DNA from: Cetorhinus maximus
Lineage: Eukaryota
Assembly (NCBI RefSeq): GCF_964194155.1
Contig: NC_135901.1
Coordinates: 13,516,001-13,580,000 of the forward strand
DNA: 64,000 bases
Direction of reading: 5' to 3'
Shown piece by piece: positions 1,861 to 61,038 of the stretch. Within the stretch, counting starts at the first letter, position 1. Every line of letters begins with the position of its first letter. Under the pieces are notes generated by a model. That model was not told where the DNA came from. It saw only the letters and a program-made list of their open reading frames with translations, and made no database searches. The translations under genes were made by a program, and so were the position numbers.

Positions 1861-3423
1861 TTATTCTCCTACCAAACCCACTGTCTCTGAGAGTCCCAGA
1901 CCTTTAGTCTGCTCCTTCATACCCGTAGTGAGCTCAAATTCCTTCACTTTGGATGGGCTGAGGTAGATCTCCTTGGCCGTGTTCTGCTCCAGTGGCATCT
2001 GGAGGTTCACGTAGTGAGCGGGTTTTGAGATGACCTTTGCTGGAGAAGCTTCTCCAAAACTCACCCCCTCTGGGGGGTTGCTGTTCCCGGCTTCCTGGAG
2101 CTGGGGTGCGATGATTGCCTCACTGCTCCCAGATTCCAGGGGCTGTGGTGCACTGGCCTCCTCAGGTTGCAGGCAAAGTTGGGGTGCGCTGGTCTCCTTG
2201 TTGTCTCCAATTTTCTGGAGCTCGGGTGTCTCGTCCTCCAACGCCCTGGAGCTTTGCCGCCTCTTCTGTCGGTGCCGCTCTGGCACTTCATCATCCGAAG
2301 AGCTGCTGCCCTTGTCATCCGTGTCGGATGGGAGACGCCTCTTGCCGCTTCTCTGGGAAACGCCTTTGCTTCTTCTTCGCTCCCTCTTACTTTTCTTGTT
2401 CTTCACCGTCCGCCACTCCCCCTGCTGCTTTTCCACTGCTGCCTCCTCCTCCATTGATTCGCTGTCCTGAGGACTGGAAGGTTCAGGGGGTAGTGCTGTT
2501 GATTGGCTCTCTGTTGCCTCAATCTCTTTCTCCACCTTGTCTCTCTCTGTGTCCTCCTTTGTCCCGTTGAGCTCCCTGGGGGCCTTGGTGGTTGGAGTGA
2601 CACGGAACCTTTCTTCTGCTTCCCCCTGGTCGGCTTTGGCTGCCTGTGCGTAAGTACGGCAGCGTTTGGGGCAGGTCCTGTAGAGGTGACTTGCCTCGCC
2701 ACACAGGTTGCAGCACTTGGCCTGTTTGCAGTCTTTTGTCTGGTGCCCTTCCTGTTTGCAGATCTTGCAGAGGGAGGCGCTGCAGTTGGCCGCCACATGG
2801 CCAGCCTTGCCGCATGAGCGACAATGCTTGGGTTGCCCAGCGTAGACCAGGTAGCCACGGTTTCCCCCGATAGCGAAACTGGAAGGAGGGTGGAAAATGG
2901 CTCCCTTACCATCGGTCTTTAGCGTGACCTTAAACAGGCGTTTGCCTGTCCAGATCCCCAAGTCGTCTCGAATCTCGGTGCCGCTCCCCACCTTATCGAA
3001 GTACCTGGTGAGGAAGGTGACCACGTCGGCGACAGGGACGAAGGGGTTGTACACATGCACCATCACCTCACGTTCCCGTTGCAACGGCAGAGAAAAGTGC
3101 AGCTCCGCCGTCAGGATCTTCATCTCCGGCAGGTCTCTCTTCTCCTCGAACACCCTCAGGAGCCGGACGCAGTCTGCCACTCGCTTGAACGTCACGTCAA
3201 AATAACCACCTTTGCGGGAGTCGTGCAGGGTGAAGATCTCCGTAGCTTGGAAGCCGCACGCCTTCAACAGGATCCTCCTGGTGAAGAAGCCCCGATCCAT
3301 AGGTGATCCTCCTTCGTCGCTGTGGTTCACCGTGACTCGGACGGTGATAGGTAACCCACGGTATGGATTCAGATTGCGATTGGTTATCGCCCTTCCATCC
3401 CAACCTTGCCTTGGCAGGACCAT
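1861..3423 (-). CDS. Tx1 ORF1 (ZCCHC3-like gag-knuckle protein), about 520 aa
   Basis: Knuckles CRSCGKAGHVAANC, CKICKQEGHQTKDC and CNLCGEASHLYRTC, then a charged low-complexity tail. The first in-element ATG is at 3423 (ACCATGG). The track's start at 3474 lies in flanking L2 sequence. Confidence 0.88.
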   Translation of the reverse strand: MVLPRQGWDGRAITNRNLNPYRGLPITVRVTVNHSDEGGSPMDRGFFTRRILLKACGFQATEIFTLHDSRKGGYFDVTFKRVADCVRLLRVFEEKRDLPEMKILTAELHFSLPLQREREVMVHVYNPFVPVADVVTFLTRYFDKVGSGTEIRDDLGIWTGKRLFKVTLKTDGKGAIFHPPSSFAIGGNRGYLVYAGQPKHCRSCGKAGHVAANCSASLCKICKQEGHQTKDCKQAKCCNLCGEASHLYRTCPKRCRTYAQAAKADQGEAEERFRVTPTTKAPRELNGTKEDTERDKVEKEIEATESQSTALPPEPSSPQDSESMEEEAAVEKQQGEWRTVKNKKSKRERRRSKGVSQRSGKRRLPSDTDDKGSSSSDDEVPERHRQKRRQSSRALEDETPELQKIGDNKETSAPQLCLQPEEASAPQPLESGSSEAIIAPQLQEAGNSNPPEGVSFGEASPAKVISKPAHYVNLQMPLEQNTAKEIYLSPSKVKEFELTTGMKEQTKGLGLSETVGLVGE

Positions 3424-3437
3424 GGTGTCGCCCCTGC
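3402..3437 (-). ncRNA. U1 snRNA-derived pieces in the head of Tx1 copy A
   Basis: GCAGGGGCGACACCATGGTC versus U1 GCAGGGGAGATACCATGATC is 17/20. It is followed by CTGCCAAGGCAAGGTT, resembling U1 TTCCCAGGGCGAGGCTT. Confidence 0.7.
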
Positions 3438-3438
3438 A

Positions 3439-3460
3439 ACACTTGATCTTAGCCAAAAGG
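3439..3460 (-). ncRNA. U2 snRNA-derived fragment (about nt 13-34) at the 5' end of Tx1 copy A; not a gene
   Basis: Minus strand reads CCTTTTGGCTAAGATCAAGTGT, 22/22 identical to the vertebrate U2 5' region as I recall it. Confidence 0.85.
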
Positions 3461-4905
3461 AAGACCAAAGCCATTGTCTTCAGTCACCACTACAAATTCC
3501 GTTCCCTAACCACTGAGTCCATCCCTCTCCCTGGGAACTGTCTGAGGCTGAACAACACTCTTCACAATCATGGTGTCAGATTTAACCCCAAGATGAGTTT
3601 CTGACCACATATCTACACCATCACTAATACCAGATATTTCAACCTCCATAACGTCGCCTGTCTCAACCCCACCCTAGATCATCTGATGCTGAAACCCTAA
3701 TCCACGCCCGTGTTACCTTTAGACTTGACGATTCCAATACATTCCAGGCCAGACTCTCATATTCATCCCACCCCCACGTGGAAACATGTAATCATCCAAA
3801 ACTCTGCCCCTGTGCTTTTTCACACCAAGTCCCGTTCATCCATTCCTCACCATTTTTGATTTATTCTTTTACAGGATATGGGTGACCCGGCTAGGCCAGC
3901 ATCTGTTGCCCATCCCTAGTTGCCCTTGAGAAGGTGGTGGTGAGCTGCCTTCTTGAACTGCTGCAGTCCATGTGGTGGAGGTACACCCACAGTGCTGTTA
4001 GGAAGGGAGTTTAAGGATTTTGATCCAGTGATAGTGAAGGAATGACCATAGAGTTCCAAGTTAGGATGGAGTGTTTCTTGGAGGGGGACTTGCAGGTGGT
4101 GGTGTTCCCATGTTTCTGCTGACCTTCTAGGTGGTAGAGGTTGCAGGTTTTGAAGGTGCTGTCGAAGGAGCCTTAGTGAATTGCTGCAGTGCATCTTGTA
4201 GATGGTACACACTGCTGTCACTGGTGGAGGGTGTGAATGTTTAAGCTAGTGGATGGGGTGCCAAGCAAGCGAGGTGCCAAAGGATGCTTTGGCCTGGATG
4301 GTGTCGAGATTCCTGAGTGTTATTGAAGTTGAACTCATCCAGGCAAGTGGGCAGTATTCCATCACACACCTGACTTGTGTCTTGTAGATGGTGGACAGGC
4401 TTTGGGATGTCGGGAGCTTAGTTTCTTGCCATATAATTCCTAGCTTCTGACTTGTTCTTGTAGCCACAGTATTTATATGGCTGTTTCAGTTTAGTTTCTG
4501 GTCAATGATAATGTTGATGTCGTGTGTGATTGGCTCCTGGTGAAGCAATGATTCAGTTTTAAAATTTGCATCCTTGTTTGCAAATTGTTCCATGGCCTCT
4601 TCCCTCCCTATCTCTGTAATCTCCAATCACACACCCTCTGAGATATCTGCACTCTTCACATTCTGACCTCTTTAGCACCCCTGATTTTAATTACTGCATT
4701 GGTCACCAGGCCCAGGTGTGAAGCTCCGAAATTCCCTCCCTAAACCTCTTAACCTCTCTCCTATTCGAGATTCTTGTTACAATCTGCCTCTCCAATCAAA
4801 CTTTGGCCATTTACCAAAATAACCCCTATGTGACTCGGTGTCAACTTTTGTTTTATGAAACTTGTCTGAAGCACATTAATCATGTTATATAAATACAAGT
4901 TGTTA
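3461..4905 (+). mobile_element. L2-clade LINE 3' remnant, split by an insertion at about 3860-4525
   Basis: Degenerate KTKAIVF...ETLIHA.VT.RLD.SN reading and an L2-like tail (ATATAAATACAAGTTG). Homologous pieces lie at about 43470-43730 (-) and 48010-48410 (+). Confidence 0.65.
3860..4525 (-). mobile_element. CR1-group LINE 3' fragment (family with the AAVCTIYKMHC...AAHHHLLKGN tail)
   Basis: ORFs 3916-4221 and 4246-4467 (TIYK.QVR.VMEYCPLAW). The same family occurs at 33270-33740, 47700-47960 and 51480-53270. Confidence 0.75.
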
Positions 4906-58489: not shown

Positions 58490-59350
58490 TCACTGTGCCG
58501 GGGAGTGATTGACGGGAGGGAATGACCAATGGGAAGAGGGGATGGAGCTGGAGGACAGAACGAGAACGGCTGGTCCTCCAATCGGAGTGAACGAGGGGCG
58601 GGGCTGAGCCCATAAATCCCTCATTGTCTCCGCAGGCTGCATATTGTCCCCGATAAAGGTGGCGGCCGTTAACCCGGCCCAGTGTCGGCTAATGGTCCGA
58701 GCAGCTGCAGCCGGTTCAAATATCGTACCCGAGCTTCGTATTCGAGGCTTGGGGCCCTCACAGGGTGTTTGTGAAGCCTCCCACCCAACTCGTCGGCTCC
58801 ATCCCTCCCCCATAACCCACCCGGCAGTATTTTACCGGCCGAGAATTTGGACACAAATCACCTCAGCTCTCTGTCCTCACCCGCACTGCGCATGCTCCAG
58901 CTCACAGAGCCCGCCTGATGGACGGCCTCTCTGGACCAATAGCAAGAGGAGGCGGGGCTGGATAACTAACTGTGCCTGGCCCGCCAACCAATCGGAATGA
59001 ATGAGGGGCGGGGCTGAGCCCGGATCTCCCTCATTGGCTGAAACTCTGCATCATTCTAAGCTGATTTGTCTCAAACTCCAGGAGAAAACTGGACCTTTCT
59101 GTTTGTGGCTTTAAACAGATGAAACCCTGTGGGTGTGAAGCAAACATTTCAACATTTGTTTCTGAAACAATAAAGGGAACATGATGAAACAATTCAAGGG
59201 CTGACTTGAAGGAATAACTGGGCGGACAGGGAATGTCACCATTAGGACAAGGAGAGTCCCTGGTTTCAATAAATGAACCGGCAGAAGAGTTAGGACAGGC
59301 TAGGGAGCAGGTTAATACTGTCATCATTCAGAACGACAAAGACTATAAAG
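58490..59350 (-). promoter_or_regulatory. Promoter duplicon (partly doubled) of the ZNF at 55114-55566
   Basis: CCAAT/GC clusters at 58520-58625 and 58930-59040, NRF1-like at 58887. Reverse-complement paralog of 41390-41900. Confidence 0.65.
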
Positions 59351-59353
59351 ACT

Positions 59354-59405
59354 ATACTTACCTGGCAGGGCAGAAACCTCGATCACAAATTCTGCCAGGG
59401 AAGGG
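59354..59405 (+). ncRNA. U1 snRNA-derived head of Tx1 copy B; not a complete gene
   Basis: ATACTTACCTGGCAGGG is identical to U1 nt 1-17, followed by CAGAAACCTCGATCACAAATTCTGCCAGGG, a stem-loop I-like sequence that keeps GATCAC. Confidence 0.88.
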
Positions 59406-59409
59406 TAAA

Positions 59410-61038
59410 ATGGCTATAACCAATCAAACCCCATATCATGGGGTACCTAACACTGTCCGAGTCACAGTGTAGGGTAGTGAAGAAGGAGGAGCAGCTATGG
59501 ACCGGGCTCTTTTCACTAGGAGGATCCTGCTGAAGGTGTGCAGCTTTGAGGCTGTGGATGTCTACTGCCTGCAAGATTTCCCCAGCGCTGGATACTTCGA
59601 CGTGACATTTCAGTGAGTGGCAGACTGCGTCAAGCTCCTGAAGGTTTTCAAGGAGAAGAGTGACCTGCCAGAGATGAAAATCCTGACAGCGGAGCCGCTC
59701 TTTGCTCTGCCTTTGCAACGGGACGATGTGGTGACGGTGCATCTATACAACCCCTTCGTCCCTGTCGCCGACGTGGTCACCTTCCTCACCAGGCACTTCG
59801 ATAAGGTGGGAAGCTGCACCACGGTTAGAGACGAGTTGGGGATCTGGACATGCAAACGCCAGGTGAAGGTCACGCTCAAGACCGACGGCAAAGGAGCCAT
59901 CTTCCACCCTCCATCCAGATTCGCTATCGGGGGAAGCTGTGGCTACCTTGTCTACGCTGGGCAACCCAAACTTTGTCGCTCATGCGGCAAGTCTGGTCAT
60001 GTGGCGGCCAACTGCAGCGCCGTCCTCTGCAAGAACTGCAAACAGGAAGGGCACCAGACCAAAGACTGCAAACAGGCTAAGTGCTGCAACCTGTGTGGCG
60101 AGGCAGATCACCTCTACAGGACCTGCCCCAAACGCTGCCGTACTTACGCACAGGCAGCCAAAGCCAACGAGGGGGAAGCAAAAGAAATGCTTCGTGTCAC
60201 TCCAACCACCAAGGCCCCCAGTGAGAGCATCGGGAACAAGGAAGACACAGAGAGAGACAAGGTGGAGGAAAAAAGTGAGGCAACAGATTTGCCTCTATCA
60301 ACAGCACTGCCCCCTGAATCTCCCACTCCTCAGGAGAGCGAATCAATGGAGAAGGAGGAGGCAGCAGTGGGAAAGCAGCAGGGGGAGTTGCAGCTGGTGA
60401 AAAGAGCCAAACGGAAGAAGGGGCTAAGAAGGAACCAAGCCATTTCCCAGACAAGTGGCAAGAGGTGTCTCCCATCCGACACAGATGACAAAGGAAGCAG
60501 CTCTTCGGACGAAGAAGGGCCAGGGTGGCACCCACAGAAGAAGCGGCAAAGCTCTAGGGAGTTGGAGGACGAGACGCCCGAGCTCCAGAACATTGGAGAC
60601 AAAGAAGAGACCAGCGCTCCCCAATTTTGTCCACAACCCGAAGAGGCCAGCGCACCCCAGCCCCAGGAATCTGGGAGCGGTGAGGTGCTCAGCACACCCC
60701 AGCTCTGGGAAGCCGGGAGCGATGAGGCGCTCAGCGCACCCCAGCCTCAGGAATCTGGGAGCGGTGAGGCGCTCAGCGCACCCCAGCTCCGGGAAGCCGG
60801 GAGCAGCAACGCCCCAGAGGGGGAGAGGATTGGAGAAGCTTCTCCAACAGAGGACAGTTCATATCCCGTTCTCTACACGAACCCCCAGATGCCACCTGAG
60901 CGGAACATCTCCAATGGGGAGTTTCAGGACCGTTTCCTCAGCCCGTCCAAAGTGAAGCAATTTGAGCTCACTACGGGTATGAAGGAGCAGACTGAAGGTC
61001 TGGGGCCCTCAGAGACAATTGGTTTGGTAAGAAAATAA
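59410..61038 (+). pseudogene. Tx1 ORF1 (three CCHC knuckles) with premature stops
   Basis: ATG at 59410 (MAITNQTPYHGVPNTVRVTV), TAG at 59470-59472, TGA at 59614-59616, then the 473-aa open remainder. Confidence 0.88.
60648..60815 (+). repeat. 42-bp (14-aa) coding tandem repeat in the ORF1 tail, about 4 units
   Basis: SAPQPQESGSGEVL / STPQLWEAGSDEAL / SAPQPQESGSGEAL / SAPQLREAGSSNA. Confidence 0.85.

Follow-up and report, generated by a model that had tools for sequence, protein, structure and literature searches.

A young and abundant Tx1/Keno-like subfamily of LINEs in Cetorhinus maximus has lost the ancestral ATG of ORF1 and likely starts this reading frame at nucleotides 26-28 of a U1 snRNA remnant in its head, while intact members sit in U2 genes and probably use the U2 promoter for transcription. 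The member that led to this reading, copy A, lies in the window, the 64,000-nucleotide stretch of contig NC_135901.1 that was analyzed. We put the probability of this reading at roughly three in four.

Copy A is full length and intact and runs on the minus strand from position 3460. ORF1 is open for 520 aa from 3423, and ORF2 is open for 1,135 aa once fetched from the genome, so the earlier view of copy A as open in both frames was upheld and a decayed or frameshifted copy was rejected. Features of Tx1/L1-type non-LTR elements were found in both proteins (an RNA-binding, zinc-knuckle ORF1 and an ORF2 with APE, RT, and C-terminal zinc domains) and in the element's structure (a poly(A) tail and a 17-bp target-site duplication at its ends, and 5' truncation). 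By these sequence features, the element is a Tx1/L1-type LINE. The closest named ORF1 proteins are from C. maximus (97% identity) and Heterodontus francisci (60%), and a relative at 46% identity carries the name transposon TX1 149 kDa protein. A public gene model (P0003) contains an upstream exon that reads through the U2/U1 head into ORF1, which is probably an annotation artefact.

Table 1. Features of copies A and B, in window coordinates
Feature	Position	Strand	Basis or remark
ORF2, APE endonuclease + RT + zf-RVT, 1135 aa	1..1850	-	continues past window start; full domain set on sister copy
ORF1, 520 aa, two ZCCHC3-type RNA-binding domains + zinc knuckles	1861..3423	-	domain search
AGG at ancestral ORF1 ATG site	3391..3393	-	Met here in outgroup families and Heterodontus ORF1; series ATG, AAT, AAG, AGG
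Out-of-frame ATG, 4-codon frame	3396..3398	-	ATG scan of copy A
ORF1 codons 3-5, probably decayed U1 nt ~43-51	3409..3417	-	seen via intermediates such as L103
U1 snRNA nt 12-31 remnant, stem-loop I 5' arm	3418..3437	-	18/20 nt identical to host U1 variant L113
U1-derived ATG, U1 nt 26-28, predicted ORF1 start	3421..3423	-	A at -3, G at +4; first ATG from 5' end, in frame
U2 snRNA nt 13-34, 5'-truncated U2 head	3439..3460	-	identical to host U2 genes; Rfam U2 match weak, E 8.3
5' copy of 17-bp target-site duplication, copy A	3459..3475	-	identical 17 nt after poly(A) tail outside window (L069); last 2 nt overlap U2 piece
Copy B head, U1 nt 1-33 without ATG (ACCTCG), and spacer	59354..59409	+	sequence comparison
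Ancestral-type ORF1 ATG retained in copy B	59410..59412	+	ATG GCT ATA ACC AAT

The head of copy A had been described as derived from U1. This was only partly right: the U1 remnant does hold the ATG, and none of 2,000 shuffles equalled its alignment score, but the head begins with U2, as do the heads of complete copies, which start at U2 nt 1. The minus strand reads ACC ATG GTC CTG CCA AGG CAA GGT TGG GAT GGA AGG GCG ATA ACC AAT, so that the ATG (3423-3421) lies exactly ten codons upstream of the AGG (3393-3391), in frame and in a strong Kozak context. The contrast drawn in the preliminary description, between this AGG GCG ATA ACC AAT and the ATG GCT ATA ACC AAT of copy B, was thereby reproduced. 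A U1 origin of the codons after the ATG was not significant in copy A alone (1,975 of 2,000 shuffles scored as well). At the gathering threshold, Rfam gave no match anywhere in the window because the snRNA heads are too short. The AUG lies partly within a predicted hairpin (z about -2), and the predicted head hairpins are marginal (z -1.9 to -2.2). In the minus-strand head at 3429-3443, a base change within the U1 remnant lets it pair with U2-derived junction bases in a predicted 7-bp stem; both this stem and a different one predicted in the head of copy B are marginal (z about -2).

Copies A and B are related elements. Copy B is dead, its ORF1 being interrupted by two in-frame stops, and was rejected as the direct ancestor of copy A, given that a rooted tree places it in a sister lineage. 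Copy B and an older copy on the same contig (L057/L058) have about 16 nt of 5' flank in common (59340-59353), which suggests a repeated target within zinc-finger clusters. Several C2H2 zinc-finger exon arrays of 84-nt repeats lie on both strands between 8500 and 55600, and the repeats amid them are presumably of the CR1/L2 type.

The replacement of the old ATG extends across the family, and a private mutation in copy A, which would have refuted the preliminary description, was rejected. In the 4.0-Gb assembly, the exact pattern from ACCATGG through the AG(G) site gave 1,023 matches, each with both features, and no match was found when ATG stood at the old site of that backbone; these exact-pattern counts include duplicate unplaced contigs. 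A census was taken of the first 100 of 1,352 places matching an ORF1-internal pattern, which was not chosen on the head but is CpG-rich and favors young copies. The first 30 matches had been picked for their likeness to copy A and played no part in the co-carriage test. At the old site, the census copies carried AGG (77), AAG (12), AAT (6), or ATG (3), and 2 were truncated beyond it. An in-frame U1 ATG was present in all 94 head-bearing copies that lacked the old ATG, including 76 of 76 with AGG (one further AGG copy was truncated before the head), and in none of the 3 that retained it. Where the U2 5' end was complete, the U1 ATG was the first ATG (33/33). Of 144 copies of the U1-ATG types, 142 had 42 or 36 nt between the U1 codon and the body of ORF1; among 25 parsed copies with heads that lacked the U1 ATG, this distance was out of frame in 19. 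Two mis-parsed rows were dropped from the spacing count. The copies counted here are kin, not independent events.

On this sequence evidence, ORF1 likely starts at the U1-derived AUG. Scanning from the cap would meet it first, at nt 50 or 55, and presumably the cap might stay translatable, since the element heads lack the Sm site. In copy A, it is the only in-frame AUG ahead of the first RNA-binding domain; the next in-frame ATG, codon 42, lies inside that domain.

The history of this start was read from a rooted tree of 760 nt of the ORF1 body without heads (68 rows sampled from the types; L054 and L038, which are long mosaic rows, and L128 were omitted, and an earlier tree lacked an outgroup). 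The Heterodontus ORF1 protein starts MAITN, and a genome search with it recovered older families in which a U2 head is joined directly to ATG GCT ATA ACC. These outgroup families and Heterodontus all have Met at the old site, which marks the downstream ATG as ancestral. The base of the tree consists of U2-headed copies with the old ATG. Two copies with an in-frame U1 ATG ATC ATG as well as the old ATG (L103 and L089) branch next, with starred support, followed by copies with AAT, those with AAG, those that lost the second U1 ATG through a 6-nt deletion, U2-re-headed AAG copies, and finally the AGG/+4 G subfamily that includes copy A. From the both-ATG type to the AGG type, the mean within-type distance is 0.098, 0.072, 0.040, 0.018, 0.013, and 0.012, the first value (a p-distance) resting on three rows. 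Since the both-ATG rows branch first and the within-type distances fall, gain of the new start most likely preceded decay of the old one, an order of branching that rests on two rows, L103 and L089.

We therefore propose an ancestor with the old ATG behind a U2 head. A U1 head would then have set ATG ATC ATG in frame upstream, and the old start, redundant once the U1 AUG was in place, would have been lost, becoming AAT and then AAG. A 6-nt deletion would next have removed the second U1 ATG, and a U2 head would have taken the place of U1 nt 1-11. The last steps would have been AAG to AGG and ATC to GTC, giving the Kozak G at +4. The sequence states in this series are all present in the genome, and their order comes from the tree. 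Two cases depart from it. Copies with TTG or TCG heads and the old ATG, including the copy B lineage, nest among AAT copies, which leaves the base of the tree mixed and implies head exchange or recombination. A further both-ATG copy, the third (L230), falls within the AAG copies and is apparently a revertant.

Three alternatives bear on the start codon. The preliminary description saw a rescue, in which loss of the old ATG preceded recruitment of the U1 AUG to restore ORF1. This order now seems improbable: both-ATG copies are the earliest branch and the most diverged type among the U1-headed copies, AGG arose via AAT and AAG, and among the copies examined there is no amplified type that has neither ATG. 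The end state does fit a rescue, and the few copies that carry both ATGs, 3 among 177 unique ones, could be recombinants. It is likewise hard to see the U1 AUG as a mere passenger, with ORF1 starting at Met42 or at a non-AUG codon. With a start at Met42, the Pfam RNA-binding match would be shortened by 13 residues, among them a strand that Heterodontus also conserves, and an out-of-frame ATG in strong context precedes that codon. Moreover, the frame of the U1 AUG was kept through the 6-nt deletion and a later 6-nt insertion, and its context improved to +4 G. The precedent for a passenger comes from Caenorhabditis elegans, in which U1- and U2-headed read-through RNAs, holding whole snRNAs, were not translated from the U1 or U2 ATGs, according to the part of PMC6390993 consulted.

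The remaining alternative, rather doubtful but less so than the other two, is that the ATG arose by a point mutation from TTG inside a head already captured. The eight best host U1 genes read ACCTTGATC, with TTG and without ATG, and in-frame TTG heads occur near the base of the tree (L223 and L325). Against this, a second host U1 variant, the ATG form (L113, 158 bits), reads ACCATGATCATG with a compensatory stem; this combination was found in the host copies L087, L106, L111, L112, and L113, and early element heads match the ATG-type variant at both ATGs. The 18 of 20 nt shared with L113 bear out the U1 derivation proposed at the outset. L236 includes a candidate ATG-type U1 gene that was split by an early element copy but has decayed. 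The U1 ATG was thus more probably captured as such, and the reading of ORF1 as starting at this AUG is retained.

Insertions were found in U2 genes at nt 37/38, in U1 genes at approximately nt 32-38, and at many dispersed sites. The search for junctions between U2 flank and head scored 40 of 1,273 candidates, so the numbers for U2 are a lower bound. Thirteen copies have a full U2 flank, and in all 13, 400 of 400 nt match the sequence upstream of the U2 gene, the poly(A) is followed by U2 from nt 38 onward, and both ORFs are open in a 5.2-kb element. The U2 remainder is itself broken up by further inserts in 8 of the 13. Twelve of them, compared without gaps, differ by 3 to 30 nt, with no identical pair. 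A fourteenth, older U2-flanked copy matches the flank at 280 of 296 nt and has no 3' end in view. Several of the contigs with U2-flanked copies also carry U2 genes. For U1, the AAT-type copy L236 splits a U1 gene with both flanks present, and other element 3' ends run into the U1 remainder; the poly(A)-U1-remainder pattern was seen at three places, which show one junction form only and hence give no count of U1 insertions. The flanks of dispersed copies look varied. None of the 100 census copies (contigs C1-C2, 140 nt viewed) had an extended U2 flank, and one had 13 nt. One dispersed copy carries 13 nt of the U2 upstream flank inside its target-site duplication. In 46 copies with a complete U2 head, the base just before it is C 19 times and G 19 times.

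A copy inside an snRNA gene would be transcribed from the external promoter of that gene, and its offspring would therefore carry the 5' end of the snRNA as a head. From the intact U2-resident copies, the insertions in U1 genes, the 13-nt U2 flank, and the C or G before the heads, we infer that snRNA-resident copies seed the dispersed ones. Capture of the U2 promoter by the element is thus likely, and the data suggest that target insertion supplied the heads and that snRNA promoters drive transcription. The stronger proposal, that both starts are outsourced to spliceosomal genes, with transcription from the promoter of the invaded U2 gene, translation from the AUG in U1 stem-loop I, and first ORF1 codons that would be translated snRNA, is somewhat favored over its negation. 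Polymerase II at snRNA genes reportedly lacks long-range elongation, as given in the part of PMC3337830 consulted, which is therefore a problem for a 5.2-kb transcript.

Heads could also have been acquired by template switching of the reverse transcriptase onto mature U1 and U2 RNA, in which case the U2-resident copies would not be sources and another promoter would be used. We consider this the less probable route, though a stronger contender than the alternatives weighed above. Extra U2 pieces of varying length ahead of some heads (L013, L179, and L206) speak for it, and template switching is favored for crocodilian SINEU in the accessible text of Kojima 2015 (PMC4494074). Mature U2 RNA, however, cannot supply the 13-nt upstream flank of the dispersed copy, the C or G before complete U2 heads fits the -1 base of the U2 gene plus a copied cap, and only some 50 nt of head precede the ATG. 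The two routes may coexist, and template switching leaves the sequence-based claim about the start codon unaffected. Promoter capture accordingly remains the preferred account of the heads.

Other arrangements were observed around snRNA genes and between copies. At two U1 loci (L291 and L292) and two U2 loci (L289 and L290), copies lie 100 to 650 nt downstream of an intact snRNA gene, with the 3' end running into an snRNA remainder. The duplication is 581 bp in L291 and at least 193 bp in L292, L289 and L290 contain tandem gene-plus-element units, and the arrangement leaves one intact snRNA gene. Copies that directly follow the poly(A) of another, spaced about 5.3 kb in tandem arrays, were seen at L007, L027, L038, L039, L044, L121, L134, and L219-L221. 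A related U2-headed family was amplified with a common upstream flank, mostly on contig C29 (L299-L303, L306, L308, L309, L313, and L318-L323), and in some of its copies ACG replaces the ORF1 ATG. Another related family (L092, L097, L297, L298, L314, and L317) has a much longer 5' region before its own ATG; in L092 and L097, a U1 head with ACCATG lies ahead of this region.

As reported in the part of PMC4640811 consulted, Keno is a Tx1-clade non-LTR retrotransposon that targets U2 snRNA genes. The element described here shares with it the APE-type endonuclease and the 3' junction at U2 nt 38/39, the site given there for Keno and Utopia. Judged by insertion site and domains, it appears to work like Keno with relaxed targeting. 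Unlike in Keno, most copies are dispersed and some lie in U1 genes, so predominant U2 specificity is not seen, and the head has a U1 remnant that supplies the predicted start codon. Neither sharks among the Keno hosts nor a LINE inserting into U1 genes among the snRNA-targeting elements appears in the lists of PMC4640811 as far as consulted. In the protein search, no named Keno sequence occurred among the 120 matches listed of 2,905.

Heads derived from snRNA are already known on Tx1 LINEs of crocodilians. In the available text of Kojima 2015 (PMC4494074), Tx1-Mar LINEs bear U1 and U2 heads and cluster with Keno, SINEU shows repeated head addition, and tandem insertion is frequent; the U1 and U2 heads, their repeated addition, and the tandem insertions recur in the present family. 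Tx1-Mar, however, prefers a Mariner target (Mariner-N4) and is old (85 to 87% to consensus), whereas young intact copies lie behind U2 promoters here. SINEU is short and noncoding, whereas the present element has 5.2 kb and two open ORFs. R2 uses a restriction-like endonuclease. Its reliance on cotranscription from the promoter of the target gene, 28S rDNA, as cited in PMC4494074, resembles what we infer here; R2 has a self-cleaving ribozyme (per the reference list of that paper), whereas here the target's own 5' end is kept on the RNA. The main text of PMC4494074, in the portion consulted, contains no mention of ATG, start codon, translation, or ORF1. It shows a U1 head with the same ACCATGATC motif, and crocodilian families may therefore share the trait unreported. 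No report of an snRNA-derived ORF1 start was found in the open-access literature searched.

If true, this would be a clean and recent case of a noncoding snRNA turned into the start codon and N terminus of an essential retrotransposon protein, and intermediates of the start-codon switch are still present in the genome. A single genome would then preserve every recent step, from the U2 head through the U1 head, the double start, and the disappearance of the old start to U2 re-heading and a better Kozak context. The finding also bears on how snRNA-headed retroelements such as SINEU and Tx1-Mar are transcribed with snRNA promoters upstream, a question that PMC4494074, as far as consulted, leaves open. 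Intact copies behind U2 promoters make this transcription testable; if the reading holds, an snRNA promoter must yield a 5-kb RNA that is polyadenylated and translated.
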